From NCBI GenBank assembly GCA_007376385.1, contig VMGC01000003.1, forward strand, positions 64,001 to 128,000: a stretch of DNA of 64,000 nucleotides, read 5' to 3'. The first letter of the stretch is position 1, and every line of letters begins with the position of its first letter. Both the position numbers and the translations under genes were made by a program. Origin of the DNA: Parcubacteria group bacterium Gr01-1014_8. GTDB taxonomy: Bacteria > Patescibacteriota > Minisyncoccia > Phycocordibacterales > UBA2100. This document shows, piece by piece, positions 6,902 to 57,458 of the stretch. Under the pieces are notes generated by a model. That model made no database searches and had not been told where the DNA came from. It worked only from the letters and a program-made list of their open reading frames with translations.

Positions 6902-6950
6902 TAGTCGCCATTTAAGCACAGCGCCGCAGCAAGTGCCACACGTGAAATTA

Positions 6951-7226
6951 TTACCCCCACCACGCTTCCCCTTTTTTAGGCTTGAACCCAACTTCAAGGG
7001 CGCGGTTATTTGCGATAGCACGCAACTCTTCTTTCGCCTGAAAATTAGTCATCAAATCTGATCTTAAAATGTCTCTCTTCAGAGCATCAAGCGCATGCAG
7101 CGTATGCGCCAGTTTCAATTTACCCGTGAAATCCTTTATATGACTCTGCACAGACTTTGAGTAGTTGTTATGGACAGCGCTGGCGAGAAACTCATCGGAA
7201 GGTTCGGGCATCGAACGATCAACCAT
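6951..7226 (-). CDS. hypothetical small protein
   Basis: ORF only, no recognisable motif. It fills the gap between ftsH and the amidohydrolase on the same strand. Confidence 0.3.
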   Translation of the reverse strand: MVDRSMPEPSDEFLASAVHNNYSKSVQSHIKDFTGKLKLAHTLHALDALKRDILRSDLMTNFQAKEELRAIANNRALEVGFKPKKGEAWWG

Positions 7227-7376
7227 GCTCAGAGTATACCCCGTGAGATAGAGATATAGCGATTGCAATGAGCAGACGAGCTATTTCTGAAATAATTACT
7301 GGTGAAATATGACGAGCCGTTATCTCATGGGGTATACGCCCTATCGGAACCGGCTCACGCAGGGAAGTGGACAGTT

Positions 7377-9317
7377 TTAAACAAGCGGCTGATGCTCGAT
7401 GTCTTCCTTCTTTTTTGGAACAATTCCGTGCGCGATGAGGATCTTTTCGAATTCTTCTCGTTCGATGGTCTCGACTTCAATGAGTTGCTTTGCGATAGCG
7501 TCCAAAACCTTGCGATATTTCTTCATGACGTCTTCTGCCCGCTTGTATGCGCCCTCGACTATCTTTTTCACTTCCGAATCTATCGCGGCTGATACTTCCT
7601 CCGATAACTCTCCGGGTTCGATACCAGCACCAAAAAGTGTCCGGCCAGGCGCAGCTTCGAGCGCGACGGGCCCCATCTTGTCCGACATACCATACTTGGT
7701 GACCATGTCGCGCGCCAGCGCTGAGAGAACCTGCAGGTCATTTGATGCTCCTGTCGTGATGTCGTTGAAGATCATCTTTTCTGCGATGTACCCGCCAAGA
7801 GAAACAGCGATATCATCCAAAAATTCCAGTTTCGATTGCATGCGTCGGTCTTCAAGCGGAAGTTTGAGCGTGTATCCTGCAGCGCGCCCGCGCGAAATGA
7901 TAGAAACTTTGTGTACGGGGTCCGCATACGTCAAGACCGACGCAATGAGCGCATGTCCCGCCTCGTGATACGCCGTTATCTCCTTCTCTTTCTTGTTAAG
8001 CACGTGGCTCCGCCTCTCTGGTCCAAGCATCACCTTCTCTATCGAACGAATGAGGTCGTATTGTGTCACTTCCTTTCTGTCCTCGCGCGCAGCAAGGATT
8101 GCAGCCTCATTCATAAGATTCGCCAAGTCCGCGCCTGAAAACCCCGGGGTTCTCTCTGCAATGACCATAAGATTCGTATCCGGCCCCATCGGTTTCTGCC
8201 TCGCGTGTATCTTGAGGATCGCTTCGCGATCCGACCTGTCCGGCAGATCGATAGTTACCCGCCTGTCGAATCGCCCGGGACGAAGCAGAGCGGGATCAAG
8301 CACGTCCGGACGGTTCGATGCCGCCATGACGATAACTTTTTCATTCGGTTCAAATCCATCCATCTCGACGAGTATTTGGTTCAACGTCTGTTCGCGCTCA
8401 TCATTTCCCCCTCCCACTCCAGAACCACGAACTCGCCCGACAGCGTCTATCTCATCCATGAACACAATGGCCGGTGCGGCTTTTTTCGCGGTTTGAAATA
8501 AGTCACGTACGCGCGAAGCGCCGACACCCACGAACATCTCCACAAATTCAGAACCGGATATTGAAAAGAAAGGAACACCTGCTTCACCCGCAACCGCTCG
8601 TGCTAAGAGCGTCTTTCCTGTTCCAGGCGCGCCCATCAAGAGAACACCCTTGGGGATACGCGCGCCTATCTGAATGAACTTTTTTGGATTCTTCAAAAAG
8701 TCGACTATCTCTGCAAGTTCCGCTTTTGCTTCTTTTGCACCGGCAACATCTGCGAACGTAACTTTTTGAACCGTATCTTCCGGAGAAATAAGACGAGCCA
8801 TCGAGCGACCAAAAGTGAATGCTTGCATGCCGGCACCCCTCACCTGCCTTGAAAGGAACCACATGATGCCAAGAAGAAGCAAAACCGGGATTAAAAGCGG
8901 CGCGAGCGTGAGAAACCAAAAGCGCGCGCCGCCCTGGTCCTGTATCTCTATCTTTATTGCCGCAATCTCCTCCGGTGAAAGTCCGTAACGCGCTAAGGTC
9001 TCGGTAAGCGGCGCCTCTCCTTCCTTCTGCGAAGTTTTTTCACTTTCATCTTTGTATGTTGCCTTGATAGTGTCACCTTCAACGGTGAGAGACACTACTT
9101 TGTCATCGCGAATGTCATTGGCAAGCTGCGATATTGCTATCTCATCCGCCCCGCTCTCAATATATTTGCGAACTGCCGAATAGCCCGCTGAAAGTACGAG
9201 AAAAACTGCGAACGCAACTGCTAGCTGCATCCAAATACCCGGTCCTTCCGACGGAGGAACGGCGGGTTTTTTCCCTTTTTTTCCGTGCAGATCGCCCGGA
9301 GTCATTTCTTCGGACAT
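7377..9317 (-). CDS. ftsH: ATP-dependent zinc metalloprotease FtsH
   Basis: N-terminal transmembrane segment. AAA Walker A (GAPGTGKT) and SRH region. HEAGHA zinc motif. Confidence 0.95.
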
Positions 9318-10159: not shown

Positions 10160-10547
10160 GGGGGTGACTGGTTTCGACAGGAAATTCAATGTGCTTGTGT
10201 GCAAGACGGAAGTGAGAACCTTCCTAAAAAATCTCAAACTCTAAGTGCAAACAAAACTGCACGGGGGGTTCTTTCGCCGATTCAGGCGAAAGACCTCGGC
10301 CTCGTTTTCGCTTAATCGCCCAAACGACCGTTCGTTCAGCGGGTACTCGATACCGTTGACGCGAGCGTCATAACCATCGAGTCCGGTTTCTATTTCACTC
10401 CGAGTAGAGACTTAAAGAAAGAGAGTTAGCCGACGTATGCTTTCGTTCATCTTCTACATACATCGGCGAATCTTCAAGATGAACTACGTCTTGTAGACGC
10501 GCCTGTGCATCATTTCTTGGACTCGAGTTCAATTCTCGACACCTCCA
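10160..10547 (+). ncRNA. ssrA: tmRNA (SsrA), standard one-piece form
   Basis: 5' end GGGGGTGACTGGTTTCGACAGG matches the tmRNA consensus. 3' tRNA-like end reads GGACTCGAGTTCAATTCTCGACACCTCCA (T-arm plus acceptor). A G3:U wobble is present in the acceptor stem. Inferred tag ORF resumes at GCA (10247) and encodes ANKTARGVLSPIQAKDLGLVFA before a stop. Confidence 0.8.
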
Positions 10548-10601
10548 CTCGATTCGCCTCTCGCTAACGCTTGAGGCTCGCTCGTGGCAAGCCACCAGTC
10601 A

Positions 10602-43696: not shown

Positions 43697-44545
43697 TTAT
43701 TTTCGCTTTCCGACCTTGCGGCGAGAAACGATAAATACGTTGGAATACTTCTTCGGCCGGCGCGATTTCTGACCCTTGCCAGTCGGTTTCCCCCACATGG
43801 ATTTGGCACGACGCAGGCCTCTGCCCTGTTTGCCTTCACCGCCGCCATGCGGGTGATCAACAGGGTTCATGGCGCTGCCTCGAACTGTAGGGCGAATGCC
43901 GAGCCAGCGCGAACGGCCAGCTTTTCCCAGTACCTGCAAACGATGCTCATCATTCGATGATTCCCCCACTGTCGCCCACGCTGTACCGATGATGCGTCGG
44001 ATTTCGGAAGACGGCATTTTAAGGTGCGTGTAGCCAGCGTCCTGTGCGATGACTTCCGCAAAATTTCCCGCAGAGCGCGCTACCTTGCCGCCCGCACCCG
44101 GCATGAGTTCAATATTGAACACGAATGTTCCTACCGGAATATTAGAGAGCGGAAGTCTGTTTCCACGCTGTATAGGCGCTTGCTCGGAGACAACAAAGGT
44201 CTCGCCGACCTTCATTAATTTCGGGACAATGACATACCTGCGTTCTCCGTCAGCATAGATAGCGAGCCCGATGAATGCGGAGCGATTTGGGTCGTATTCA
44301 ATTGTCGCGATGCGCGCAGGAACATTCTTCTTATTCAATCGAAAATCAACATCTCTCATGAGACGCTTGTGTCCCCCGCCTTTGTGACGAGTTGTGATGC
44401 GGCCGAATGCGTTGCGGCCCGCGGCGCGCTTTTTCCCAGATCGGAGGAATTTCGCAGGCTTGTGCCCTGAGAGCATCGCGCGGAAGTTGACCCGGCTCAT
44501 ACCGCGCTGCCCATCCGTCGTCGGTTTGTAGAATTTCATGCTCAT
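43697..44545 (-). CDS. rplB: 50S ribosomal protein L2
   Basis: Family similarity and operon position. Confidence 0.95.
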   Translation of the reverse strand: MSMKFYKPTTDGQRGMSRVNFRAMLSGHKPAKFLRSGKKRAAGRNAFGRITTRHKGGGHKRLMRDVDFRLNKKNVPARIATIEYDPNRSAFIGLAIYADGERRYVIVPKLMKVGETFVVSEQAPIQRGNRLPLSNIPVGTFVFNIELMPGAGGKVARSAGNFAEVIAQDAGYTHLKMPSSEIRRIIGTAWATVGESSNDEHRLQVLGKAGRSRWLGIRPTVRGSAMNPVDHPHGGGEGKQGRGLRRAKSMWGKPTGKGQKSRRPKKYSNVFIVSRRKVGKRK

Positions 44546-44548
44546 AAA

Positions 44549-44938
44549 TTATGCAATGGTTATTGTTTCGCCTTTTGTAAGGTATACGTATGCTTTCTTT
44601 CCTCCTTGTTTTGTGCCGCGAGCGCCTGTCCTTGAGTTTCGAACCTTCTTCTCAGGAACCGATACTACGCGAACCATGCGAGGTTGTACTTTGTAGTACT
44701 TCAGAACGGCCTCTGATATTTCCCTCTTGGTAGCACGGGATGCCACGTCAAACACATACACGCTCATCAACGCCGCTGCAGTTGCTTTCTCTGTTATCCG
44801 AGGACGCATGAGGATGTGCGAGAGATCAGTGTTACTTTTGCTCTCACTTCGGCGAGTTATTTGGCTCGCAGGTGCGGCAACAGAAAGCACGTCCGCCTTC
44901 GGTTCCGTCTTTGGTTTTCTGCTGAAAAGTGCATTCAT
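44549..44938 (-). CDS. rplW: 50S ribosomal protein L23 (with N-terminal extension, or start at an internal Met)
   Basis: RPRITEKA...L23 core. The true start codon is uncertain. Confidence 0.85.
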   Translation of the reverse strand: MNALFSRKPKTEPKADVLSVAAPASQITRRSESKSNTDLSHILMRPRITEKATAAALMSVYVFDVASRATKREISEAVLKYYKVQPRMVRVVSVPEKKVRNSRTGARGTKQGGKKAYVYLTKGETITIA

Positions 44939-44946
44939 AAATATTT

Positions 44947-45702
44947 TTATTGGTCACCTTTTTCCACCTCGCGCACTGACGTTACACTCGCTTTTGCTCG
45001 CTTCGTTTTTGCAGGCGCCTTCTTCTCGTCTTTCTTTTGTTCCCCAAAACGATGCGCAAGAATTGCAACAGCTGCCTCTGGATTCTCTATCACGAGGTAT
45101 GAGTTTCTCATAACAGACACCGGATTCAGTTCGCGCACTGCCCTGCATTCGATGTTTGCGATGTTGCGAAAACTTTTCACCGATGCTTCGCGCGGGTCAG
45201 CAAGGGCAACGAGCGCCGCGTTCCGTGTCTTTTCGTGCATGGCATTAAAACCAAGCGCCTTTCCGAGCGAGGCGATCGCTTTCTTTGCGAGGGCGGTCTT
45301 CGGCGCATCGATCCCGAATGAATCAACGAACACAACTTCGCCACTCTTCAATTTTCGAGAAAGCGCCATTGCGAGCGCTTTGATGCGCATCTTTCTCGGG
45401 ATCTCGCGGGCATATGACTTTTCATTGCGAGGGCCGTGCGTCACTCCACCGCCGCGCCATATCGGCGAGCGTATAGAACCGTGACGAGCGCGGCCAGTTC
45501 CCTTTTGCTGCCATGGTTTTTTGCCGCCGCCCCGTACCTCGCCGCGCTCCTTTACGTGCGCGACCGGTGTGCGAGCATTTGAAAGCATAGATGTCACGAC
45601 CTGATGCATCAGCGAATCATTCCACGCAACATCAAAGACACGCTCTGGCAATTCCACCGAGCCTGACTTTTTTCCTTGTGTGTTGTATACGTCGTATTTC
45701 AT
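44947..45702 (-). CDS. rplD: 50S ribosomal protein L4
   Basis: Family similarity and operon position. Confidence 0.9.
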   Translation of the reverse strand: MKYDVYNTQGKKSGSVELPERVFDVAWNDSLMHQVVTSMLSNARTPVAHVKERGEVRGGGKKPWQQKGTGRARHGSIRSPIWRGGGVTHGPRNEKSYAREIPRKMRIKALAMALSRKLKSGEVVFVDSFGIDAPKTALAKKAIASLGKALGFNAMHEKTRNAALVALADPREASVKSFRNIANIECRAVRELNPVSVMRNSYLVIENPEAAVAILAHRFGEQKKDEKKAPAKTKRAKASVTSVREVEKGDQ

Positions 45703-45707
45703 ATAAT

Positions 45708-46316
45708 TTAGCCTCGGATCTCAACCAGCGTGCCGGGCCTTCCTGGCACGGCACCTGAGATAACAAGAGTATTGGATCCAGCATCAACCTGCAAAACACG
45801 CAGATTCCTCACGGTTATTCGATCGCCTCCCATGCGGCCGGCCATTCGCATCCCTTTCACCACGCGTCCGCCGGCACGACCGCCGCCTCCGATTGAACCC
45901 GGAGAACGCTCTTTGTTTTTTTGACCGTGCGAGCGAGGGCCTCCCTTAAAACCGTGCCTCTTCACGACACCTTGAAAACCCTTTCCTTTTGATATCGCGG
46001 ACACTTCAACAATATCGCCCGGTGCAAACACTGAGACATTTATTGTCGCGCCCCTTTCCATTGTTTCCGCTCCTTTAAATTCTCGGGCGTATCGGAAATT
46101 TCCGAGATCTTTGAAGTGCCCTTGTACCGCCTTGCTCAGATTCTTCTGTTTCCGGTCGCCGAAGCCAAATTGCACGGCCGCGTAGCCATCCTTTTCAACA
46201 CTTTTAGCCTGAGTCACTGTGAGTGGCCCAGCAGTAATGATGGTCGCAGCAGCAACTGCGCCATCTTCATTGAAGATCTGGGTCATTCGACCCTTAGTTC
46301 CGAGCATGAATTTCAT
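45708..46316 (-). CDS. rplC: 50S ribosomal protein L3
   Basis: Family similarity. First gene of the cluster. Confidence 0.9.
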   Translation of the reverse strand: MKFMLGTKGRMTQIFNEDGAVAAATIITAGPLTVTQAKSVEKDGYAAVQFGFGDRKQKNLSKAVQGHFKDLGNFRYAREFKGAETMERGATINVSVFAPGDIVEVSAISKGKGFQGVVKRHGFKGGPRSHGQKNKERSPGSIGGGGRAGGRVVKGMRMAGRMGGDRITVRNLRVLQVDAGSNTLVISGAVPGRPGTLVEIRG

Positions 46317-46420
46317 GTTAGAGATTCTTAGCGAGTTACTACGAGCTTAGAAGCTCTTACACCCTGTTAAATGCAACTCTTCCGAGGTTGCCCCGCCTCT
46401 GGCGGGATTTAACAGGGTTG
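46317..46420 (-). repeat. structured leader element, copy C (5' leader of rplC)
   Basis: Outer stem CCCTGTTAAAT/ATTTAACAGGG. Its inner hairpin 2 uses a different but still complementary sequence (GCAAC/GTTGC) from copy B (ACGACC/GGTCGT). Confidence 0.6.
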
Positions 46421-46466
46421 TGAAAACTATAGTCGTCCTCGCTTCGCTTCGACCCCTTAGTTTTCA

Positions 46467-46497
46467 ACAAAAAACCGCGCCACTGGCGCGGATGGTT
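46467..46497 (-). terminator. rho-independent terminator upstream of the rplC leader
   Basis: Sense strand ccgcgccagtggcgcgg followed by TTTTTTG. It ends transcription from the accessory genes upstream. Confidence 0.6.
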
Positions 46498-46672
46498 CAT
46501 CCGAGTCCAGTGGTCCCGTATTGGGACATGGGTGACCCGTGAGATGGCGGCCTTGCGGCCTATCTCATGGGTTCGCGGCACTATACACCCCATGAGATAA
46601 CAAGTCAAAAACTTCTCGTACAGAACAGATTTTCTATCTCACGGGGTACACGAGGAGTGTACGGGATGCAAA

Positions 46673-47107
46673 CTAACTTGTTGCAGGGGGATTGTCGGCA
46701 GCGGACGCCAGCGAAGCGTTTTCCTTTCTGTGATGAATATCGTAGAGATGTTTCAAGAGCACCATGGTAAGCGCCAACGAGACCAAAATGACGCCATATA
46801 ACGCAGGCATGGACAGCTGTCCTATCGGTCCTGCGGATGACTGGAAGCTGGAAGGAACAAACGTTTGTTCCGGAAGGAAATCTTCCGCGACTCCCTGTTT
46901 CTCTGCTTCGCCTGCAAGCGACTCAACTAAAACGGCAAGTTCGCTCTCAGATAGTTCGCTTGAACGCGGATCACTCAATAAAGATGCGCGTATTTCATCG
47001 CGAAGCAGTACTGAATCATCCGCTTGCGCAAAAACACTTATCGGGAGAACGAGCGCTCCTGCAAACAAAATCACTAGTGCAGTTTTTTTAATTGAATGCA
47101 CGTTCAT
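46673..47107 (-). CDS. hypothetical exported/membrane-anchored protein
   Basis: Signal peptide and C-terminal TM helix. No recognisable domain. Confidence 0.4.
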   Translation of the reverse strand: MNVHSIKKTALVILFAGALVLPISVFAQADDSVLLRDEIRASLLSDPRSSELSESELAVLVESLAGEAEKQGVAEDFLPEQTFVPSSFQSSAGPIGQLSMPALYGVILVSLALTMVLLKHLYDIHHRKENASLASAADNPPATS

Positions 47108-47111
47108 ACGT

Positions 47112-48134
47112 CTAGAGTTCTTGGAAAATCGGGATAATGTTCACCGTCGCGGTCGGCTTTGGCAGAAATACCCCGCCGCTCGACTTCGTGCAGGAGAGTG
47201 TGTAGGTGGTCTGCGTAGAAATAGCGCTTGAAGTCTGCGTCCCAGACGTGCCTGACCACGCATCGGTTATGTCGGGGTTATCCTCGGTGACTGTGCACGA
47301 TGTTATGCCGGAGCTAATCCAGCTAACCTCTGTGGTCTCGCCTGCTCTGATGAGTGATGGAGATACAGCGATGTCGGCCGCAGATGCGTCTCCTCCGCCA
47401 GAGAGACATGCGCCATTTGCACATCCATATGCGCACGCTTGTTCAAACTGATTCGAGCACGTAGGAGGGTTTACTCTTCTGTAGAGGTCATTGCCTACGC
47501 ACGTGAACTGCGGGCTGCATGCGGCATTAACAGTTACGGTTACATTACATGACCATGACTCCGTTTGTACCAAGGCATCCCCGCTCTGTACCGACGAACG
47601 CGTACCTGTAAGCGTGTAGGTCGTACTTTGTGTCGGTGTGACCGACCACGAACCTGCCCACGCAACACCGCCAGGCGTTGGCGAGAGCGTTCGGGTCCAT
47701 GGGTTAATGGGATCCGTTTCTGAACTCCACGAAAGATTGGATACTTGGCCGGATGCTACTGTTAACGGCGACGCATATATGACACATCCGGAGCTTGGCT
47801 GTATCGGCGTATCGCAATCGCCGCTCTGATGGGGATTTGACGGACATGAGGCGGGAACGATGCGTAACCCCGATCCGCTGTATTCCGTAAAACGAGTTTC
47901 TGAAGAAACTATGCCATCCTGCATTTGCAAAGCCCCGCTGAATTGAAAGACAGCTATCGAGAGCATACCGAACAATATTGCCCAATATGTGCGCGTAGAT
48001 ATGCCGCGCAAAATCTTCTCTGCAGAAAGCAACCGCATAACCCGTTCTGTACATTGTCCTATAGACACACGAGAGAAACAATGCGGTGCCTGTGCATAAT
48101 TGTCCGCATACCTTTTTACAATCTCCTTCCGCAC
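47112..48134 (-). CDS. cell-surface protein with repeated Ig-like (beta-sandwich) modules
   Basis: TM/signal near the N-terminus. Repeated Thr/Ser-rich modules (TYTLTG..., TYTLSC...). Start codon uncertain. Confidence 0.4.
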   Translation of the reverse strand: MRKEIVKRYADNYAQAPHCFSRVSIGQCTERVMRLLSAEKILRGISTRTYWAILFGMLSIAVFQFSGALQMQDGIVSSETRFTEYSGSGLRIVPASCPSNPHQSGDCDTPIQPSSGCVIYASPLTVASGQVSNLSWSSETDPINPWTRTLSPTPGGVAWAGSWSVTPTQSTTYTLTGTRSSVQSGDALVQTESWSCNVTVTVNAACSPQFTCVGNDLYRRVNPPTCSNQFEQACAYGCANGACLSGGGDASAADIAVSPSLIRAGETTEVSWISSGITSCTVTEDNPDITDAWSGTSGTQTSSAISTQTTYTLSCTKSSGGVFLPKPTATVNIIPIFQEL

Positions 48135-48982
48135 ATGGCCCGGGAAACAACGTCTGTTTTGGAGACATCCATAATGGAACCAGTCTGTATACTGCGCATA
48201 TTCTCCCGCAGAGAATCCTGCAATGCGTATACGCCCTCCGGTGCAATACGGGGATCATTTCCAGGATAGGCTGTCAGCCAATCTTTTTCTGTGATGGCCA
48301 TCGCCGCTTTCACTGCATCCCGCGCTTTCTTCAGGGCAGCTTCCTTTTCGCCAAGTTCAAACAGCGCGATCGAATGCGAACTAAGAAGCCAGGGATTTTC
48401 CGGAAAAAGCTGGAGGCCATGTTCCGTCGCCGCACGTGCGTCGCGAGGGCAATTGCTTTTAAGCAGGACCCACGCGTAATCATTTAATCCAGCCCAATTT
48501 GACGGCTCCCGAGACAAGTAGAGTTCGTAATCTCTCGCGGCAGCCTCATAATCAGTCATGAAACCCTCGATAAGGCCTCGCACGTAATAGGAATTCGCCT
48601 GTGCATCGCCGTGCTCGGAGATCTCGATAGTTATGTGAGCCAGCGCGGTTGCAAAATCACTTCTCAAAAAATAGATCCGTGCAAGTTCGTGATGCACGTA
48701 TGGAAAATGGGGCATGATAAAGGCGGCTTTTTTCAGATACGTCTCGGCTTTTTTAATGCTGTATGCATCGTCGCGTGTATTGAGAAAATACGAACCCATT
48801 TCATACAGAAGTTTCGGGTCATTAGGTGCGAGCATTCGTGCAGACTCAAGATGGATGCCCTCCCACAGCGCGTGCGCGAGAGCCGTGCGATAAAAGAAGA
48901 TGAGCCCCGCAACAAACAACACCGACAAGGACGCGGCGACGATCAGCTTTGCCGATCTTGCCTTCCACATGCCGTGCATCAC
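48116..48982 (-). CDS. membrane-anchored TPR-repeat protein
   Basis: N-terminal TM and several TPR-like helical repeats. Confidence 0.5.
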   Translation of the reverse strand: MMHGMWKARSAKLIVAASLSVLFVAGLIFFYRTALAHALWEGIHLESARMLAPNDPKLLYEMGSYFLNTRDDAYSIKKAETYLKKAAFIMPHFPYVHHELARIYFLRSDFATALAHITIEISEHGDAQANSYYVRGLIEGFMTDYEAAARDYELYLSREPSNWAGLNDYAWVLLKSNCPRDARAATEHGLQLFPENPWLLSSHSIALFELGEKEAALKKARDAVKAAMAITEKDWLTAYPGNDPRIAPEGVYALQDSLRENMRSIQTGSIMDVSKTDVVSRAMCGRRL

Positions 48983-50121
48983 TTGCTTATCTCACCGTAT
49001 TTTATGAGAAACTCCTTGAAGTTCGGATTGAGTTCTGAGAGGTCAATGTAGCCTTTGTAGTAGCGCTCCCAATCAGCCTTTGAGCGCGCTCCCCCCTCGC
49101 GCAAAAAAGCAAGATAGTAGCCCTGGTGGACTGCTGGATCCTTCTCGACGAGCGTCATGAGCGCATTCAGATACTTGTTGATCTCGGCTTTTGCGTCCGT
49201 ACCCTGCACATCGTACAGCGCAAGTGCATAGTTGAAATATGTATACGGAAGACGCGACGCGATAAGCGGAATGGGGGCTCCTTTCTCATCCCGCGTGGTC
49301 TCATTCAATTTCACCAATGCATCCAAGGCTATTTTAGCGTCCTCAAGATACTCCGGCTGTACCCTCGCCATCACTCCATAGAGATATGATTTCCAAAAGA
49401 GGAACCGGGGCTCAACCATATACTCGAACGGCCTTCCCTCGACGGTCTTCAATTCTTGGGGAAGCAAGGCATCCGCAGATGCTATGACCTTCGCTATTTC
49501 CCCCGCGTATTCCTTTTTTTGAGCTGGCGTCGCGTTCCAGTCTCCATATAAATTCCGGATCCTGTCCGTATACCACTGACCTATGCGAAATTGAGCCTCC
49601 GTTGTCGGATACAAGGATATGGAATATTCCGCAAGATTGCGTATCGAGGTAGCCGCGTCATCTTGGACAAGGAAACTTTGGAACGGTTCGCCGACAAATA
49701 CTTCATCAAATACGAATGGTTCAAATGCCGCGTTGATATAACCGAGTAATTTGTTCACCTGGAGAGCTTTCTCATAGTTTGTTTTGCTGAGCGTATAGGT
49801 CTCCTTTGTCAGCTGTACCGCTTCAATGCGCTTGCGAGCATCGCCGCTCATGAATTTACCGGTATCAACTACAGAACGCGCAACAAAATTTGGCTCCGAT
49901 GAACCCCGCATGACCAGCTCCGCCTGTGCGACCGCCTCATCAGATCTCCCCTGCGCTGCAAGATGCAAAGCAGTGTCCGTCATTTTCTTTTGTTCTTCTT
50001 CGCTTAAGCCGCCTCGCAATAAAAAAAGGTCCGGGCGAAAGACATACAAAGCCGCCGTCGAAAGAACTGCCGCAACAAGAAGTATAAGAACGATGATCCC
50101 CCGTATGTTTGTTCCAGTCAT
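48979..50121 (-). CDS. membrane-anchored hypothetical protein
   Basis: N-terminal TM followed by an alpha-rich soluble domain. Confidence 0.4.
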   Translation of the reverse strand: MTGTNIRGIIVLILLVAAVLSTAALYVFRPDLFLLRGGLSEEEQKKMTDTALHLAAQGRSDEAVAQAELVMRGSSEPNFVARSVVDTGKFMSGDARKRIEAVQLTKETYTLSKTNYEKALQVNKLLGYINAAFEPFVFDEVFVGEPFQSFLVQDDAATSIRNLAEYSISLYPTTEAQFRIGQWYTDRIRNLYGDWNATPAQKKEYAGEIAKVIASADALLPQELKTVEGRPFEYMVEPRFLFWKSYLYGVMARVQPEYLEDAKIALDALVKLNETTRDEKGAPIPLIASRLPYTYFNYALALYDVQGTDAKAEINKYLNALMTLVEKDPAVHQGYYLAFLREGGARSKADWERYYKGYIDLSELNPNFKEFLIKYGEISK

Positions 50122-50126
50122 AGAGA

Positions 50127-50453
50127 TTATTTTCCCCCGCTGCCTCCGCTTCCTCCGGCACAGCCATCACAACAATCACCTGCGCCAGCGTCACCTGCAT
50201 CACCTGCATCACCTGCGCAGCCTCCACACCCACCGTCGCTGCAACCATCCGACGTGCAACTCGAACAACTCGAACAACTGCCCGGGGCATCGGCGCGCGC
50301 CACATCAGAATTTCCTAAAACTCGCTCGCCGCCTCCCCCTCCAAATACGCGCGGCGCAATGACAGTAAGAAGCACGATGACAGCACCGAGGAACAGTAAC
50401 CCCGCATTCCGGATCGCCTTATATCCTCGCTGGGAGATGCGTACAATAGCCAT
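50127..50453 (-). CDS. candidate RiPP precursor: TM/leader region plus Gly/Ser/Cys-rich core (microcin-B17-like composition)
   Basis: C-terminus GSCSSCSSCTSDGCSDGGCGGCAGDAGDAGDAGAGDCCDGCAGGSGGSGGK. A TGaTATACT extended -10 sits 6 nt upstream of the ATG (leaderless-like). 9-nt tandem repeats occur in the core coding region. Confidence 0.45.
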   Translation of the reverse strand: MAIVRISQRGYKAIRNAGLLFLGAVIVLLTVIAPRVFGGGGGERVLGNSDVARADAPGSCSSCSSCTSDGCSDGGCGGCAGDAGDAGDAGAGDCCDGCAGGSGGSGGK

Positions 50454-50527
50454 AGCGAAAGTATATCAGTACACAGCACAATATCCGCGCCTTATGTGGA
50501 TATGTACTTCCACCCTATCTCGCCCTG

Positions 50528-51721
50528 CTATTTTTGTATCCAATCATTGGTTTGAAAGATCGAAAAATCCAAAGCGCATACATTCGCTGTCTCGATAACC
50601 CGATGCAGAGGCTCGTGCGCAAACGATAGATCGAGCGACCAGAAGATTTCCCGTATGGGCGGCTCGCCCCGGCACAGCGCTTTGAGTTCGAACCAGCGTG
50701 TATACGGGCTACAGCGACAAGGACGATTTTGCCATGCACCTTTTATAACCTTCTCGGTCCCGTCCTCGTACCGTACCGTCGCAAGCGATACGCCGCTCGT
50801 GGCCGGAAAGTAAGTCGCAATGCCGAGATGAGGCCTCGCAAATGTAAAACTTCGGCTATGGAGCGCAAAGATGATCCATGCGTGCATCATCAATAGACCT
50901 AGACAGATGATGGCCATGCGCCATATGTAGGTGCCACTGGGTTTTTTTGCAGGCACGTCGAACCAAAAAAGCGCGGGCAAGATCGGCACGATAAGCAACA
51001 TGTAGTATTGTTCAAAGACAACGCCTGCATACACATGGAACGCTACAAAGACGCTCAGTACGCCTCTGCGATACCGCGCGTCTTTAGAAAGGAGGTACCA
51101 CACGCCGATCCACTGCAGAGCAAACGCTCCATGTACGAACCATAATTCGACGCCTGCAGGAATGAGCGGCATATCCTTCGGCAGGCCATCCAAGATATAC
51201 GCGCGATAAAATTCTGTGACACCGCCAAGTACATACAGAAAGACAACAAGAGCACGCGCTGTCCATTCCTTGCATGCGGCAAATAACAGCACCGCTGACA
51301 GCAGGAGGTGCAGGTATGAGTACGCTTCGCCGGCTTCATATGAGAGAACGAGGAGAAAAAAAGCTTCCCACAACCAAGTCAGAAGAAAGATGCCGTGTGC
51401 CGCGAGCCATCGACCCCTGATCGCCGCAAATAAAGCAACCGTTTGCAGAATGAACAGGAAGCCATACAGCGCCGTCTGCGAATAACCGTATTGTTTTAAA
51501 TTTAGGAAATACCATTCACCGCATTGCTGAAAAAACGGCCAGCATGTATACACGTTGCTTTGGTATGCCTGAACGGTGCCCGCATCATCGCCGACAAACG
51601 TTGCGAAGAGGAACATCTGATACGCGAGCGCAATGAAAAATAAGATGCGCGCGTTTTCGGAAGGCAAAAATTCGCTCAAAGAGAAAAACTTCTGGTAGGA
51701 ATCACGGAGGCGCTCCAACAT
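50528..51721 (-). CDS. polytopic membrane protein (possibly HTTM/SdpB-like)
   Basis: About 8 TM helices with no soluble domain. The family assignment is tentative. Confidence 0.35.
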   Translation of the reverse strand: MLERLRDSYQKFFSLSEFLPSENARILFFIALAYQMFLFATFVGDDAGTVQAYQSNVYTCWPFFQQCGEWYFLNLKQYGYSQTALYGFLFILQTVALFAAIRGRWLAAHGIFLLTWLWEAFFLLVLSYEAGEAYSYLHLLLSAVLLFAACKEWTARALVVFLYVLGGVTEFYRAYILDGLPKDMPLIPAGVELWFVHGAFALQWIGVWYLLSKDARYRRGVLSVFVAFHVYAGVVFEQYYMLLIVPILPALFWFDVPAKKPSGTYIWRMAIICLGLLMMHAWIIFALHSRSFTFARPHLGIATYFPATSGVSLATVRYEDGTEKVIKGAWQNRPCRCSPYTRWFELKALCRGEPPIREIFWSLDLSFAHEPLHRVIETANVCALDFSIFQTNDWIQK

Positions 51722-51788
51722 GCATGAACTATATCATGCAGTATCTTTTGCAGATGAAAAAAAGGATGTACCATTCTGTTGTACATTC

Positions 51789-53429
51789 ATGTCATCACCC
51801 TATGCAGACATATTGCGGAATGCGATAGAAAAACGAGTCTTCGTGAAAGCCAAGAACCCCGGTGATATCGTTTCATTGGATGGCACACATTCGCTGCCCT
51901 GGATATTCGATTTTCGTGCGGCAATGTGTGATTCGGAGCATTTGAATGCATTTGCAGAGCTTTTTTGGGAGCGATCCGAAAATGAATATCCATTTCAGGT
52001 CTGCGGAATGGAAACCGCAGGCATCGCACTCGTTGCCGCTATCTGCATGAAGGGCCACGAACGAAATAAGCCGGTGAATGGCCTCTATGTCAGAAAATCA
52101 AGGAAAAAATACGGGTTGATGAAGGCATTTGAAGGAACCCCGACAAAAGATCCTGTGATATTTGTCGACGACCTTATTAACACGGGCCAGTCGGTGCAAA
52201 AAGTCCTCGCGGTATTGCATGATGAGGGATTGACCCTTCGTTCCGTATTCACCATCCTCGGCGTACGGTCTCTTGATGAGTATGCTTTTCTCGATAAAGC
52301 AGGCATCACGTATAGCATGCTCTTTCTATCCGAAGAATTCGGCGTACCTTTGGTAAAAAGTCAAACGCCGATACGGTACGATGAATTCGATGTGCTGTGG
52401 ACATTCAAAAGCGGGTCGCCAAGCTACCAGCATGTGGTCCCTAAATCCGCCCCGGCTCTTGATGCCTCCCACGTATACTTCGGCTCCGATGACGGAATAC
52501 TGCACGCACTTGACCAGAAAACCGGGGCAGAGCTCTGGAAATATCGTATCGGGATGTTCCCTTTCGGCAAAGGGATATTTTCAACTCCCGCAGTCGCGAA
52601 CAAAACCGTATATTTCGGAGCGTATGATGGAAATATGTACGCACTTGCTTCGGATACCGGAAAACGCCGCTGGGTGTACCGAGACGCGGATTGGATAGGC
52701 TCGTCGCCCGCAGTTGCGCCGGACCTAGGATTGCTCTACATCGGCCTTGAATTTGGGCTCTTCAACAAGAGAGGCGGCATTGCGGCACTTTCCCTGGATA
52801 CAGGAGAAGAAAAATGGGCTATGCGCTCAATGAATGGACTCACGCACTGCTCTCCCCTGTATATGAAGGAGGAGCGGGCAGTCGTTATCGGCAGCAATGA
52901 CGGATCAGTGTATTGTTTTGATGCACATTCCGGAAATGAGCAGTGGACGTACAAGACGAACGGAAGCGTCAAATCATCGTTCGCATATGACGCGAAGCGC
53001 CGGCTCGTCATATTTGGTTCTTTCGACGGCAATGTGTACGCGCTCCGTGCAAAGGACGGCAAGCCTGTCTGGCACTTCGATATCGGCGAAGCCATCTTTT
53101 CGACTCCGTGTCTTCTCGGTGATTATGCATACATGCCGTCTCTGAATAAATACCTGTTTGCGCTCTCGCTGGATTCCGGCGAAGAGAAGTGGCGTTTTCA
53201 AATGAGAGGCAGGATATTTTCCTCGCCCGTGATCGCAGATAATTCTCTTTGGATAGGCTCCAACGACGGCCGGCTTTGCGAACTTGATCCAGCGACTGGG
53301 ACAGTGCGCTCTTTCTTCCAGACAAGCGAACGTATTGTAAACGCAGTCGCCTATAATGCGGCATCGAAAACTTTTTTCGTGCCTACACAGGCAAATGAAC
53401 TCTACAGTATCAAGAGAAAAAACTCATAA
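51789..53429 (+). CDS. fusion of a type-I phosphoribosyltransferase-like domain with a PQQ-type beta-propeller
   Basis: PRPP-binding motif VIFVDDLINTGQSV (OPRTase-like) at the N-terminus. Six to eight PQQ/BamB-like repeats (G.DG.lyAld..tG...W) follow. Confidence 0.6.
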   Translation: MSSPYADILRNAIEKRVFVKAKNPGDIVSLDGTHSLPWIFDFRAAMCDSEHLNAFAELFWERSENEYPFQVCGMETAGIALVAAICMKGHERNKPVNGLYVRKSRKKYGLMKAFEGTPTKDPVIFVDDLINTGQSVQKVLAVLHDEGLTLRSVFTILGVRSLDEYAFLDKAGITYSMLFLSEEFGVPLVKSQTPIRYDEFDVLWTFKSGSPSYQHVVPKSAPALDASHVYFGSDDGILHALDQKTGAELWKYRIGMFPFGKGIFSTPAVANKTVYFGAYDGNMYALASDTGKRRWVYRDADWIGSSPAVAPDLGLLYIGLEFGLFNKRGGIAALSLDTGEEKWAMRSMNGLTHCSPLYMKEERAVVIGSNDGSVYCFDAHSGNEQWTYKTNGSVKSSFAYDAKRRLVIFGSFDGNVYALRAKDGKPVWHFDIGEAIFSTPCLLGDYAYMPSLNKYLFALSLDSGEEKWRFQMRGRIFSSPVIADNSLWIGSNDGRLCELDPATGTVRSFFQTSERIVNAVAYNAASKTFFVPTQANELYSIKRKNS

Positions 53430-53474: not shown

Positions 53475-54902
53475 ATGCTGCAAGATGTGGTGCCGTTCAA
53501 GGAATTTGCATCCAAAAAATTCCCCGGTATTGTAGGCCGCGCGATACTGCAATTCATAGGTGTTTTGGAAAAAGCACTCGGCATCAGAACAGTGATAGAC
53601 GCTGATGAAGTTCCGTACGGAAAAACAGAGCTCTCCGACCTCTTTTTTATTGCTTCATCTTTGAAGAAAGTCGGGACGCTGACCTCATATTCTCAAAGCA
53701 TTGCGCCGCCGGATGAGCCACGTATCTTCAAATGGCAGGCACGTTACGGAACGGAAAATGCGGGCGGCATGTCTGCGCACTCCGACAGGAATGCCCTCAC
53801 AGCGGCACTCGCAGAATGCGTTGAGCGAAAAATATGGGCCGATAAAACAGATTTTTTTAAGAAACCTTTTACCGCCTCAACCTCGGAAATGAAAGATACT
53901 GCGCATATTTCCCCCGAACGATTCGCCGGCCTTACGGAAAAGCAGCGCACAGAAAAAGATTTTTTGAAGATGCAACCTATCAATACATATCTTTGGATAC
54001 GCGGATACTCTCTCGTTCAAAACAAGCCCATATACATCCCTGCACAGATCGTAAGTAGAGTTCACGGCATTGCGATAAAAAAGAACAAATCCGAGCCGCT
54101 GCTCCGACCGATAATTACAACAGGACTCGCAACGGGACAGACGCGCAAAAATGCGCTCCTGTCCGGGGCACTGGAAGTCATCGAACGCGATGCTTTCATG
54201 GTAACGTGGCTTAACCAGATAACACCCTCCCATATTTCAACGGATGAATTGCTCAAGAGTGAGACGTTAGATGCTCTCCTTTCAAAGTGTAAACGATACC
54301 GGCTTGATGTGGATTTCGTGCGGCTCATGACTGACGCACCAACGTATGTCATCGGTGCAGTCGTTTCTGACGGCGCGAATATGCCACCTATTGCAATCGG
54401 CATGTCCGCGCACCAAGACGCATCGCGTGCCGCCGAAAAAGCACTTTTAGAGGCGCTGCGTGCGCGCGTCAACACGCGAAATCGCTTAGAAAAATTCCGC
54501 GAACGAGCATATAAACCTGTCGAAACTATTTCTCAAGGGGAGCGCTCAATGTATTGGGCTGTTGACGACCGTTCAAAACAACTGTCATTTTTAACTGCTG
54601 GTCCTCTGCAAGCACTGGATGACGAAGCGTGGGACGATGACACCACTGAAGAACATCTGGAGAGGATAATCGAGTGGTGCAGAAAAAAGAAATACGAACT
54701 CGCGGAAATAGACATGACAAACTCTGCTGCAAATACGACTCCGTGGTGCGTAACATTCGTCGTGATACCGGAAATGCAGCCGTTGCATCAGAACGAAGAT
54801 CTGCCTTGTATCGGCGGCGCACGCTTGAAAGACATACCTAAACAATTCAGACACGAACCTCGCGCGGAACCATTCGTCGCAGCACCGCATCCATTCGTAT
54901 AA
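53475..54902 (+). CDS. YcaO-domain protein (RiPP cyclodehydratase/amide-activating enzyme)
   Basis: YcaO signature GMSAH...AECVERK and TTGLATGQTRKNALLSGALEVIERDAF. C-terminal ELAEIDMTN...PWCVTFVVIPEM. Confidence 0.8.
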   Translation: MLQDVVPFKEFASKKFPGIVGRAILQFIGVLEKALGIRTVIDADEVPYGKTELSDLFFIASSLKKVGTLTSYSQSIAPPDEPRIFKWQARYGTENAGGMSAHSDRNALTAALAECVERKIWADKTDFFKKPFTASTSEMKDTAHISPERFAGLTEKQRTEKDFLKMQPINTYLWIRGYSLVQNKPIYIPAQIVSRVHGIAIKKNKSEPLLRPIITTGLATGQTRKNALLSGALEVIERDAFMVTWLNQITPSHISTDELLKSETLDALLSKCKRYRLDVDFVRLMTDAPTYVIGAVVSDGANMPPIAIGMSAHQDASRAAEKALLEALRARVNTRNRLEKFRERAYKPVETISQGERSMYWAVDDRSKQLSFLTAGPLQALDDEAWDDDTTEEHLERIIEWCRKKKYELAEIDMTNSAANTTPWCVTFVVIPEMQPLHQNEDLPCIGGARLKDIPKQFRHEPRAEPFVAAPHPFV

Positions 54903-54904
54903 CT

Positions 54905-55633
54905 ATGTCTCTACTTTCACTTACACGACTGCACACATATTTGCGCAGCAGTCGTATCAGAAATAAGCCGGAAAATCCATCGCCGATAACTGCAACAGCA
55001 GTATCTTCAAAAAAATACCCTCGAATGCCGCAAATCGAGCTACCGAATGCGGATACTTCGACGATAACACTCGCCGAAGCAATGCATTCACGAATATCTC
55101 AACACGCGTTCGAAGAACAGCCGCTATCGATCGCATCATTATCACAGATACTCAAGAACTCGGCGTTCTCAGAAAACGCATCCCATCGTCCCTACCCTTC
55201 TGGCGGCGCCCTATTTCCAATCGAGATATATCTGCTCGTTCGTGATGTTGAGTCGCTTTCTCCTGGTATATATCACTATAGACCCGATGTTCACCGTCTC
55301 GAATTCTTGTGGGTACTTTCCGAAAATCTTGAACTGGACGTTACTTTCGACGCATGGGTAACGAGTGCTCCTGTTCTTATTGTGCTTACTGCACAATGGT
55401 CTCGGTCATGGAATAAATATAATGATTTCGGTCTCGAACTCTCTTTGCTTGAAGCAGGACACATCGGACAAAATATGCTCCTTTCAGCCGTCGCAACAAA
55501 TGCATGCGGATGTCCTTGGGGCGGATTTAATGAAAAAAATCTTGCAGATATTCTGGACCTCGATAATGAACGCGAACAAGTTGTTTACACGATCGCTCTT
55601 GGTCCGAGTATTTCAAAAGCTTCGCCGAATTAA
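54905..55633 (+). CDS. SagB-type (nitroreductase-fold) FMN dehydrogenase
   Basis: RPYPSGGALFPIEIY signature of TOMM B-type dehydrogenases. Its start sits 3 nt after the YcaO stop. Confidence 0.75.
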   Translation: MSLLSLTRLHTYLRSSRIRNKPENPSPITATAVSSKKYPRMPQIELPNADTSTITLAEAMHSRISQHAFEEQPLSIASLSQILKNSAFSENASHRPYPSGGALFPIEIYLLVRDVESLSPGIYHYRPDVHRLEFLWVLSENLELDVTFDAWVTSAPVLIVLTAQWSRSWNKYNDFGLELSLLEAGHIGQNMLLSAVATNACGCPWGGFNEKNLADILDLDNEREQVVYTIALGPSISKASPN

Positions 55634-55730: not shown

Positions 55731-55931
55731 CTAACGCTTCCAGCCCGCACAATACGACCCGCATCTCTTGCCCTTGTAGCAATTTCTGCAGATCGACATG
55801 CATGAGTTGTAATCGTGCGCCGTGGCACACGCCTGCGTGGTGCATGCAGGCATGACCGGGGTTGACCCCGTTACTCCAAGCAGCAGGGTTAAGGCCCCTG
55901 CCAAGCCCAAGAGAGTTTTCCTCGTAGTCAT
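55731..55931 (-). CDS. small secreted Cys-rich peptide (candidate bacteriocin or second precursor)
   Basis: 66 aa. Signal-peptide-like N-terminus, then PACTTQACATAHDYNSCMSICRNCYKGKRCGSYCAGWKR with 8 Cys. Strong RBS GGAAAGGAG 9 nt before the ATG. Confidence 0.55.
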   Translation of the reverse strand: MTTRKTLLGLAGALTLLLGVTGSTPVMPACTTQACATAHDYNSCMSICRNCYKGKRCGSYCAGWKR

Positions 55932-56180: not shown

Positions 56181-57458
56181 TCAAACGAGTGTCTCATCAA
56201 CAACGATCTGGCATTTTCCACGCGCTGTCGGCGGAATGTTCGCGACGAGTATTATTTTGACCGCAATAGAATTCCCAACTAACTCGCGAACGTTTGATTC
56301 GATTCTCTGTGTTGCATTGCCATCGAACAGAGCGCCCGGAACTATTCTCAATTCAAGTGCACCCTCGGCCGTTTTTGCGAACTGGTATTGGAACACGAGG
56401 TCCATGAACATATCCAGCGCTGCATCGAACTCCAGATGATGTATATCCCGCCCGCCGAAATTCAAGAACGCTGAATATCTTCCCTCGAACCATATTCTCG
56501 GAGTTTCAAGGCCGCATGTGCACCCCTCTAACGATATGACTCCGTGATCGCCTGTGTCATACCGAATGAACGGCATGTTGTAGTTCGTCAGGTCTGTCAG
56601 AATTACCCTTCCCCACTGCCCCGGGGGAAGTACTCTTCCTTCTTCGTCCACTATTTCCGCAATGATCGATTCGCTGTGCAGGTGCTGTCCATCGTGATAT
56701 GTGCATTCGCATGCCACAGCGGACATCTCTTCGATGCCGTACCGGTCATACACTTCGCTTTGCATTGCGGTTTCCAAAAATCCGCGCAGCGCGGGGGGAA
56801 GCATTTCGCCGAACGACACAATATATTTCGGCCGTATGCGGGGCAGAGAGAGGTCAGAGGACAATTTTTGCGCCAAAATAAACAGGATCGAAGTGTAACT
56901 CTCCAATACTTCCGGCTTGAATGACGCAAGCTTTCGTATCGCGTCTTCAGGATCGGACAAGAACTGTTTGACCGGCATAAAAAAACGGTAGCGCGAGGAG
57001 TTCGAACGTATCTTGATGCGGGCGACGCGAAGTTTTGAGAAGTCGAACATAAAAGCATGTTGCCAGGAAATGAATCTGAAACAGACCGATTCCAGATATC
57101 GCATATCAGTTGAATTGCGCCCGAATAAGAACGTGAACGGCTTCCCGCTCGTGCCCGACGTGTTATACCACCGTGAAAATATCTGCTGGCTGTTGTCGAT
57201 GAGCTCCTCACGCGGACGATCCAAAAAAGTTTCTTTTCGGGTTATCGGAAGCGAGGAGAGACCTTCCAAAGTGCGTATCTTTTCCGGCTCAATACCAGAA
57301 AGAGCATACAACTTTTTATACAAAGGTACGTTCGCCGCCGCATGCATGATGATCATCCGCAATCTTTTCTCCTGCCATCTTTGTATGGCCGAACGGGACC
57401 GACGATGCAAGAGATGAAAACGGAGATATTCGATGCTCTCGCGTATCTCATTGATCAT
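56181..57458 (-). CDS. PaaK/CapK/F390-synthetase-like adenylate-forming enzyme 1
   Basis: YNTSGTSGKPFTF (P-loop-like) and RYDTGD motifs of the phenylacetate-CoA ligase family. Confidence 0.7.
   Translation of the reverse strand: MINEIRESIEYLRFHLLHRRSRSAIQRWQEKRLRMIIMHAAANVPLYKKLYALSGIEPEKIRTLEGLSSLPITRKETFLDRPREELIDNSQQIFSRWYNTSGTSGKPFTFLFGRNSTDMRYLESVCFRFISWQHAFMFDFSKLRVARIKIRSNSSRYRFFMPVKQFLSDPEDAIRKLASFKPEVLESYTSILFILAQKLSSDLSLPRIRPKYIVSFGEMLPPALRGFLETAMQSEVYDRYGIEEMSAVACECTYHDGQHLHSESIIAEIVDEEGRVLPPGQWGRVILTDLTNYNMPFIRYDTGDHGVISLEGCTCGLETPRIWFEGRYSAFLNFGGRDIHHLEFDAALDMFMDLVFQYQFAKTAEGALELRIVPGALFDGNATQRIESNVRELVGNSIAVKIILVANIPPTARGKCQIVVDETLV

Follow-up and report, generated by a model that had tools for sequence, protein, structure and literature searches.

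The DNA considered here (the window) is a stretch of 64,000 nt from Parcubacteria group bacterium Gr01-1014_8 (contig VMGC01000003.1, positions 64,001 to 128,000), and it harbours a small open reading frame (ORF) of 108 codons that probably encodes the precursor peptide of a Patescibacteria-specific system for linear azole-containing peptides (LAPs), of the type also known as thiazole/oxazole-modified microcins (TOMMs). The predicted product is very probably the substrate of the YcaO/dehydrogenase pair encoded in its neighbourhood, because the protein family to which it belongs co-occurs with, and usually abuts, this clade of YcaO genes. Several genetic features of a LAP locus were found, namely linkage to YcaO, a SagB-type dehydrogenase and a bipartite precursor with a core rich in Cys, Ser and Thr. 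The parts of the small ORF, and the promoter-like element ahead of it, are as follows, in coordinates of the window.

50127..50453, minus strand: small ORF, putative precursor of the YcaO/SagB (azole-forming) system; 108 aa plus stop (translation, ENA/NCBI gene call).
50292..50453, minus strand: leader region, aa 1-54, with an N-region containing 4 K/R, a transmembrane-type helix and a linker of ~19 aa (alignments, family statistics, AlphaFold).
50355..50405, minus strand: hydrophobic transmembrane-type segment, aa 17-33 (AGLLFLGAVIVLLTVIA; Kyte-Doolittle and AlphaFold).
50283..50300, minus strand: junction motif A52-R-A54↓D55-A-P57 (in the family, [A/V/T]-x-A↓[D/E]-[A/V]-P), at which the leader is probably cleaved, the site being of the signal-peptidase-I type.
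50130..50291, minus strand: core region, aa 55-108, with 18 Gly, 9 Cys, 9 Ser, 1 Thr and 8 Asp.
50132..50279, strand not assigned: three 9-nt tandem repeat arrays in the core (Tandem Repeats Finder).
50460..50468, minus strand: extended -10-like element TGaTATACT, 6 nt upstream of the ATG, the putative promoter of a leaderless or nearly leaderless transcript.

Translation of the small ORF gives exactly the Gly/Ser/Cys-rich protein of 108 aa that an earlier note, made by a model from the letters of this stretch, had described, and both ENA and NCBI annotate it as a gene (hypothetical protein G01um10148_720, Parcubacteria group bacterium Gr01-1014_8). The hydrophobic N-terminal stretch that the same note had taken for a possible leader or membrane anchor is likewise present, with residues ~17-33 reaching a Kyte-Doolittle 19-mer mean of 2.46 against a family median of 2.16. 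An AlphaFold model, for which nine family sequences served as input, predicts a single helix at residues 8-37, with predicted local distance difference test (pLDDT) scores of 81-88 across residues 11-30 and below 50 for residues 39-108, which are given no structure. The core contains SC, CS and CC pairs, and its DNA is built in part from short tandem repeats, for which periods of 9 and 12 nt had been proposed. The 9-nt period holds, Tandem Repeats Finder reporting TCACCTGCA at 50191-50216 (2.9 copies, 100 % matches), CAACTCGAA at 50257-50279 (2.6 copies, 100 % matches) and TTCCTCCGC at 50132-50157 (2.9 copies, 82 % matches), all with a period of 9, whilst the 12-nt period was not recovered by this program. 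The gene lies within a co-directional array, with a 397-aa gene ending 74 nt upstream and a 380-aa gene starting 5 nt past its stop. Scans of the small ORF with Pfam and NCBIfam gave no credible match, and Rfam and tRNA scans found nothing at its locus. As relatives with the same architecture occur in many genomes, whose cognate YcaOs are just 36-53 % identical, the 108-codon gene is, judged by this conservation, a real one rather than a chance ORF.

The presence of a YcaO gene, implied when the small ORF was first remarked upon, is borne out, with a SagB-type dehydrogenase gene directly after it. Both lie ~3 kb from the small ORF, on the opposite strand and divergent from its array, and are accompanied by a third gene.

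53475..54902, plus strand: YcaO cyclodehydratase, 475 aa, C-terminus ...PHPFV, with no fused E1-like domain or recognition element (RRE) for peptides that are ribosomally synthesised and then modified after translation (RiPPs) (Pfam YcaO, 3e-44).
54905..55633, plus strand: SagB/McbC-type azoline dehydrogenase, dependent on flavin mononucleotide (FMN), 242 aa (TIGR03605, 123.7 bits, cutoff 78.4).
51720..53429, plus strand: protein with a phosphoribosyltransferase (PRT)-like N-domain and a PQQ/BamB-like beta-propeller (Pfam PQQ_2 and Beta-prop_ACSF4; NCBIfam pyrE-like, residues 60-200).

YcaO homologues 36-53 % identical to that of the window are numerous in Patescibacteria, and their contigs carry the same gene set. 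By way of a YcaO alignment, 79 YcaO loci were gathered from species-representative genomes, and their six-frame ORFs were searched with a hidden Markov model (HMM) of the small-protein family. This search returned 50 ORF matches, all within Patescibacteria-type YcaO loci, to which a composition-based screen added two members missed by the HMM (in loci L016 and L047). With both methods combined, a family member is present in 43 of the 51 related Patescibacteria YcaO loci. The homologous small ORFs that the earlier note had advised looking for near YcaO genes are therefore there, and its contrary case, in which the ORF is lost and the YcaO kept, is the opposite of the co-occurrence seen. Of the eight related loci that lack a member, two have their YcaO gene at a contig edge, with no upstream DNA, and the 31 distant YcaO loci, mostly from other phyla, yielded none by HMM and again none by the composition screen. 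The distance between member and YcaO is less than 600 nt in 37 of 45 cases, usually in divergent orientation. Duplicated loci display the same pairing: L027 and L029 each harbour two YcaO paralogues, every one with its own adjacent copy of the small ORF, whilst L003 has another copy, upstream of a second YcaO gene that runs past the end of the locus. In the reverse direction, contigs reached from two of the small proteins, P0139 and P0130, carry PQQ-domain and YcaO genes, that of P0139 also a nitroreductase gene.

With regard to the enzymes, the AlphaFold model of the window YcaO (pLDDT 92) comprises only the YcaO fold and a small N-terminal alpha/beta region, and its best fold match is the heterocyclase LynD, followed by MusD, an archaeal YcaO and McbD. 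The best NCBIfam match is TIGR03604, the SagD family, at 186.6 bits. A PHPF[A/V] sequence, or one with S in the last place, is conserved at the extreme C-terminus of ~120 YcaO homologues, the window protein ending in ...APHPFV; a proline-rich PxPxP C-terminus is associated with azoline-forming YcaOs (PMC12338566). The top solved relative of the dehydrogenase is an uncharacterised putative nitroreductase, with the azoline oxidases SagB-type dehydrogenase/CyaGox, McbC and BmdC next. The gene for the PRT/propeller protein is conserved beside YcaO and SagB, as judged by co-occurrence across loci, and its product may be a YcaO partner or a protein that recognises the leader.

It took a full HMMER search to uncover the family of the small ORF. 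A word-indexed homology search with the ORF returned only itself, and the same kind of search with the family profile returned nine matches, all unnamed or 'hypothetical', amid many low-complexity candidates. A phmmer search of 1.84 billion representative proteins (E ≤ 1e-3) gave 18 matches, consisting of the ORF itself, 16 small proteins of 76-134 aa with the architecture of the small ORF, and P0133, a protein of 834 aa whose match is confined to low-complexity stretches. Comparison of 20 family members with the curated families of Pfam and NCBIfam produced no credible E-value (best 0.0047). The N-terminal half is conserved across the family in both alignments (A1 and A2); in A2, which holds 20 sequences, A54 and D55 never vary, and G23, P34 and P57 hardly do.

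Family statistics were drawn from 63 unique members. Their leaders contain a median of ~4 K/R and ~0 D/E ahead of the hydrophobic 19-mer (median Kyte-Doolittle 2.16), Cys accounts for 0.3 % of leader residues, and the median distance from the hydrophobic segment to the AxA motif is 19 residues. At the junction, position -3 is occupied by A in 44 members, V in 7, T and S in 2 each and other residues in 8, whilst position +3 is Pro in 39 of the 63; these counts derive from the motif call of a script, a few calls of which sat on a nearby A-D/E site, and the Ala at -1 and Asp/Glu at +1 were imposed by its search pattern, the invariance of A54 and D55 coming independently from the 20-sequence alignment. 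Signal peptidase I sites obey a -3/-1 rule, and the family motif fits this rule and looks like such a site. A distant member in L047 (12790-13158, plus strand), which sits downstream of YcaO rather than upstream, has a short canonical signal peptide (…FIPLFLLLGVVTLVQYVAAGTVRA↓DAPGEN…) with VRA↓DAP directly after the h-region, at the canonical spacing, and is useful evidence for the ADAP junction as a signal-peptidase-type site.

Beyond the junction, the core is hypervariable in sequence and ranges from 23 to 138 aa (median 43). It is composed of 29.8 % G, 15.8 % S, 13.0 % D, 11.6 % C, 9.8 % A and 4.1 % T, with almost no K/R. The residue most often ahead of a core Cys, Ser or Thr is Gly; the Gly-Cys/Gly-Ser character ascribed to the window core at the outset is thus a property of a Cys/Ser/Thr-rich family, and one shared with microcin B17. 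Some members without core Cys retain Gly-Ser/Thr/Asp cores (L003, 16031-16276, minus strand; L022, 9614-9901, minus strand; L051; L053), and their products, if modified, would therefore possess oxazole or methyloxazole rings only; in the fetched L051 and L053 loci, a SagB gene was not detected. Repetition is a common feature of the cores, with ADSAADSAADS, five copies of GTDS and three of GADA in L016 (9390-9848, minus strand), three of ACGDSS in L007, GSSC/DSSC together with two copies of GCGSAD in L021 (6105-6581, minus strand) and three of VTSST in L036 (1214-1534, minus strand). From these sequences, cores appear to evolve by expansion of short tandem repeats, and because so many relatives have repeat-built cores, expansion or contraction of the window core by this route is plausible. 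Two metagenome scans, one with the leader DNA and one with the back-translated leader peptide, found no strain variants with other repeat numbers. A conserved leader joined to a hypervariable core is, at the level of sequence, the pattern of a RiPP precursor.

The start of the gene is also conserved in its arrangement. The minus strand reads cTGaTATACTttcgctATG, with TG at 50468-50467, TATACT at 50465-50460, a 6-nt spacer and the ATG at 50453, and no Shine-Dalgarno-like sequence precedes the ATG, exactly as the earlier note had it. A promoter scan requiring two hexamers missed this element because there is no -35 box. When 45 members are aligned at their conserved ATG, strict TAnnnT hexamers (4/6 or more matches to TATAAT) peak at a gap of 6 nt (11 members), with 25 at gaps of 6-11 compared with ~0.3 per offset elsewhere, and Shine-Dalgarno-like 4-mers occur in 2 of the 45. 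By these alignments, a putative leaderless or near-leaderless start is a conserved trait of the family, the position of the transcription start being predicted from the placement of the -10 element. The habit extends to other genes: of 24 genes within the surrounding 20 kb, just 4 are preceded by a Shine-Dalgarno-like 4-mer; TGaTATAGT (51728-51736, minus strand) stands 6 nt ahead of the ATG of the 397-aa membrane-protein gene, and TATCCT, upstream of 53475 (plus strand), 6 nt ahead of that of the YcaO gene. The genome thus seems to rely widely on initiation that is free of Shine-Dalgarno sequences and often leaderless. The absence of this sequence was considered as a mark that might single out the small ORF, and was rejected, as 20 of 24 neighbouring genes lack one too. 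The leaderless-style promoter first proposed is accordingly upheld in its position, which is family-wide, but is no peculiarity of the small ORF.

The genes around the small ORF on its own strand encode membrane-associated proteins, two of them with tetratricopeptide repeats (TPRs) or similar repeats.

50528..51721, minus strand: polytopic membrane protein of 397 aa with at least 5 hydrophobic segments and invariant Cys residues, between the small ORF and the YcaO arm.
48979..50121, minus strand: 380-aa protein with an N-terminal membrane anchor and TPR-like helical repeats (hydropathy; PDB-profile TPR matches).
48116..48982, minus strand: membrane-anchored TPR protein of 288 aa (Pfam TPR_19, TPR_17, TPR_2; hydrophobic segment 13-31).
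47112..48134, minus strand: protein of 308-340 aa (308 aa as called by ENA), bearing a hydrophobic segment at its N-terminus but lacking any known domain.
46673..47107, minus strand: 144-aa protein that contains hydrophobic segments but matches no known domain, the last gene before the L3 ribosomal-protein operon.

All four proteins encoded downstream of the small ORF have an N-terminal hydrophobic segment. The steadiest downstream partner is the 380-aa protein, for which 28 homologous ORFs come after the small ORF in the various loci, several of them matching Pfam TPR models. Among the ORFs of the fetched loci, 45 are homologous to the 288-aa TPR protein (E ≤ 1e-5), with a best match in most Patescibacteria YcaO loci, and relatives of the 308-340 aa protein range from 230 to 1474 aa. 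The gene for the 397-aa membrane protein occurs in a subset of loci, and neither this protein nor the 340-aa and 144-aa ones has a Pfam, NCBIfam or PDB-profile match.

In the window (43697-47107, minus strand), this small-ORF/TPR operon is directly upstream of, and on the same strand as, the L3-L4-L23-L2 operon. The same adjacency to the L3 operon is seen in 14 distinct loci, i.e. the window together with L003, L006, L016, L019, L020, L022, L026, L027, L030, L033, L034, L040 and L053. A position beside the L3 operon is a stable chromosomal site, and an unusual one for a secondary-metabolite cluster. Between the 144-aa gene and rplC there is a gap of ~360 nt (46317-46672) with no called gene, and no S10 gene stands ahead of L3. 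Within this gap, which may act as a regulatory leader for the ribosomal operon, TTGACT-17-TATAGT at 46608-46580 resembles a promoter, and a strong hairpin at 46491-46475, with 7 GC pairs and a T run, resembles a terminator. Elsewhere, the window contains a tRNA-Ile with anticodon TAT (3182-3256, minus strand) and a tmRNA (10160-10548, plus strand) with the tag peptide ANKTARGVLSPIQAKDLGLVFA.

Several further genes accompany the enzymes. In L002, the closest relative (YcaO 53 % identical), an extra gene for a 352-aa protein (6924-7982, plus strand) is present between the YcaO and dehydrogenase genes; the protein has no Pfam match, its gene is absent from the window, and it could be a partner or docking protein. 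Two tandem genes for CapK/PaaK-like adenylate-forming ligases (56181-58822, minus strand) adjoin the dehydrogenase gene, and such genes recur in some related loci only (L002, L004/L005, L011, L016, L018 and L033). The ligase-like 455-aa protein had no Pfam match in the present scan, the ENA record listing a weak CapK_C match, and searches of Pfam, NCBIfam or PDB profiles returned nothing for the 480-aa and 929-aa proteins. An ORF of 66 aa (55731-55931, minus strand) sits just past the end of the dehydrogenase gene. It comprises a signal peptide and a mature part rich in Cys (…DYNSCMSICRNCYKGKRCGSYCAGWKR), and is preceded by a strong sigma-70-like promoter (TTGACT-17-TATAAT, 11/12 matches, 56085-56057, minus strand). 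Its relatives are weak (L004/L005, possibly L027) and it has no Pfam match. As an alternative conserved substrate it was rejected, since those relatives are both weak and restricted to few loci.

Taken as a pathway, these genes could operate in the following manner. Transcription would begin from the extended -10 promoter, at the ATG or a few nucleotides away from it. In the cytoplasm, YcaO would use ATP to cyclodehydrate core Cys, Ser and Thr residues to azolines, which the FMN dehydrogenase would oxidise to thiazoles and oxazoles, possibly with the PRT/beta-propeller protein as a partner. The N-region and the hydrophobic helix of 19-20 residues would then serve as a Sec signal or signal-anchor, placing the acidic, azole-rich tail outside the membrane. 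A cut after the conserved Ala (AxA↓D) would free the tail, and the product may then be bound, held or passed on by the TPR proteins, which are membrane-anchored and co-transcribed.

A number of observations weigh against this reading. Its support is wholly genomic, and the heterocycles are predicted ones. The AxA motif, at its median of 19 residues past the hydrophobic segment, is far for signal peptidase I, and the peptide may therefore stay anchored or be cut by another protease; moreover, a Sec-targeted precursor would have to be retained in the cytoplasm until modified. In the window, two genes separate the small ORF from YcaO, an arrangement that is, by comparison with related loci, a rearranged form of the usual one. 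The score of the YcaO falls below the TIGR03604 cutoff of 219 bits, and its C-terminus reads PxPx[A/V], the third Pro of PxPxP being replaced. Structure prediction and a fold search showed no E1-like or Ocin-ThiF-like partner or RRE within the YcaO, and Pfam, NCBIfam and PDB-profile searches showed no E1-like/RRE partner domain among the neighbouring proteins. Azoline-forming YcaOs that are independent of a partner do exist, as in bottromycin biosynthesis. Lastly, Pfam and NCBIfam scans revealed no recognisable transporter, protease or immunity gene in the cluster.

Of the other explanations, the main rival holds that the small protein is exported or anchored unmodified, as an acidic Cys/Gly-rich peptide (metal-binding, or a surface 'brush') that works with the TPR proteins, the YcaO pair acting elsewhere. 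This is considered unlikely, despite several features that would suit it: the leader is less like that of a classical RiPP than like a signal or anchor, the small ORF is the first gene in an operon of N-terminally anchored proteins, its acidic Cys-rich core is like those of metal-binding peptides, the Pfam/NCBIfam scans and the YcaO fold search disclosed no RRE-containing partner, and another small secreted Cys-rich ORF is encoded nearby, at 55731-55931. That second ORF, however, with its weak relatives in few loci, leaves the cluster without any other conserved small ORF, and the small ORF usually abuts YcaO and duplicates along with it. The Gly-Ser/Thr cores of the Cys-free members are better suited to heterocyclisation than to thiol-based metal binding, and the combination of conserved leader and hypervariable core is again that of a RiPP.

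Proximity to ribosomal genes raises a different prospect, namely that the YcaO system serves the ribosome, like the YcaO of Escherichia coli, and that the surroundings of the small ORF are mere conserved gene order by the L3-L4-L23-L2 operon. Whilst the window and 13 other distinct loci have the cluster immediately upstream of the L3 operon, and some relatives of the YcaO are annotated 'ribosomal protein S12 methylthiotransferase accessory factor', the small ORF, YcaO and SagB occur together in many loci away from ribosomal genes, and second copies of the cluster within one genome retain the small ORF. In addition, the best fold match of the YcaO is a peptide heterocyclase, and it is paired with a SagB-type azoline dehydrogenase, an enzyme for which we know of no role in the modification of ribosomal proteins; this explanation is thus highly improbable. 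As for the small ORF being a spurious frame across a GC-rich repeat region, its C-terminal half is indeed of low complexity and encoded by repeats, ORFs overlap on both strands, and the word-indexed search matched only the ORF itself. Such a frame would not, however, be expected to have an N-terminal half and junction motif conserved as protein across dozens of genomes, a stop packed 5 nt ahead of the next co-directional ATG, or a promoter position conserved across a family, and the notion is effectively refuted by this family conservation.

Returning to the precursor of a LAP system, microcin B17 was the comparison originally drawn. The idea of a YcaO substrate survives from it, in the form of a YcaO-linked family, but membership of the microcin B17 family does not, as no similarity to curated families was found. 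The two share a Gly-rich core with Gly-Cys, Gly-Ser, Ser-Cys and Cys-Ser sites as well as a YcaO and an FMN dehydrogenase, and the solved relatives of the window dehydrogenase and YcaO include McbC and McbD, respectively. They differ in that the small ORF has no sequence homology to McbA or a curated precursor family, and in that only equivalents of C (dehydrogenase) and D (YcaO) are present, no McbB-like E1 or McbEFG-type export/immunity genes being found. The microcin B17 leader is 26 aa long, soluble and removed by TldD/E; that of the window peptide runs to 54 aa and includes a transmembrane-type helix as well as an AxA↓D motif. The window core is also strongly acidic (8 Asp/54), and its cluster includes membrane-anchored TPR proteins and the PRT/beta-propeller protein. 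Streptolysin S (SagA with SagBCD) offers a similar mixture, with a SagB-family dehydrogenase, a SagD-like YcaO and a Cys/Ser/Thr-rich core in common. In the window cluster, however, no SagC-like docking protein, CaaX-type protease or ABC exporter was detected, the YcaO does not reach the TIGR03604 cutoff, and the peptide combines a hydrophobic leader with an acidic, Gly-rich core.

For how the window peptide may work, the best analogy is with the bufferins/oxazolins, which are RiPPs modified by MNIO/DUF692 enzymes and equipped with Sec signal peptides; their Cys residues are heterocyclised in the cytoplasm, and the peptides are then exported and bind copper in the periplasm or envelope (PMC12452194). 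The likeness lies in a Cys-containing precursor with a Sec-type signal peptide as 'leader', here signal-like and predicted. The enzymes are different, bufferins employing an MNIO enzyme and a DUF2063/RRE partner and the window locus YcaO and SagB, and Pfam found no MNIO (DUF692) or DUF2063 domains in the neighbouring proteins. Furthermore, there is no sequence similarity, and the AxA site of the window peptide is ~19 residues from its hydrophobic segment. A Sec-signal leader for YcaO peptides was not found in the literature searched, in which the MNIO-modified bufferin/oxazolin group was the sole documented RiPP precedent. A more far-reaching proposal, possible yet doubtful, is that the window represents the first family of YcaO-class RiPPs with a Sec signal or signal-anchor leader, azole-modified in the cytoplasm and then exported or tethered, and that together with the membrane-anchored TPR proteins it forms a chromosomally stable envelope module of episymbiotic Patescibacteria. 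In such a module, the acidic azole-rich tail would be outside the cell and might serve, for example, metal capture or host contact rather than acting as a diffusible antibiotic.

The kind of cluster is itself already known, since LAP-type clusters (YcaO with nitroreductase) were reported in 2020 from candidate phyla radiation (CPR) genomes, including 51 Parcubacteria, along with one putative precursor of 84 aa from a Microgenomates genome (Sharrar et al. 2020, PMC7298704). Those clusters are of the same kind, and from the same kind of organism, as the window locus. The text of that work contains no precursor family, signal-like leader, AxA↓D-A-P junction, membrane-protein operon or PQQ-domain protein, and its 84-aa peptide, the sequence of which is given in a figure only, may or may not be a member of the present family. 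The precursor family, its signal-anchor-like leader and AxA↓D-A-P junction, the acidic core, the membrane/TPR operon and the PRT/propeller protein thus appear undescribed in the literature searched, Pfam and NCBIfam.

The small-protein family therefore supplies a likely substrate family for the CPR YcaO/nitroreductase clusters, which were counted in 2020. It comes with a searchable signature (a positive N-region, a transmembrane helix, [A/V/T]-x-A↓D-[A/V]-P and a Gly/Ser/Cys/Asp core) and with a conserved set of accessory genes, which together open the system to direct testing through heterologous expression. Should the signal-like leader prove functional, the idea of a 'Sec-exported RiPP' would extend past MNIO peptides to the large YcaO class, and the manner in which modification finishes before export would become a question. 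These bacteria are ultra-small and depend on hosts, and there are very few candidates for the molecules of their surface or interactions; a stable, operon-encoded and exported azole peptide, if true, would be one.

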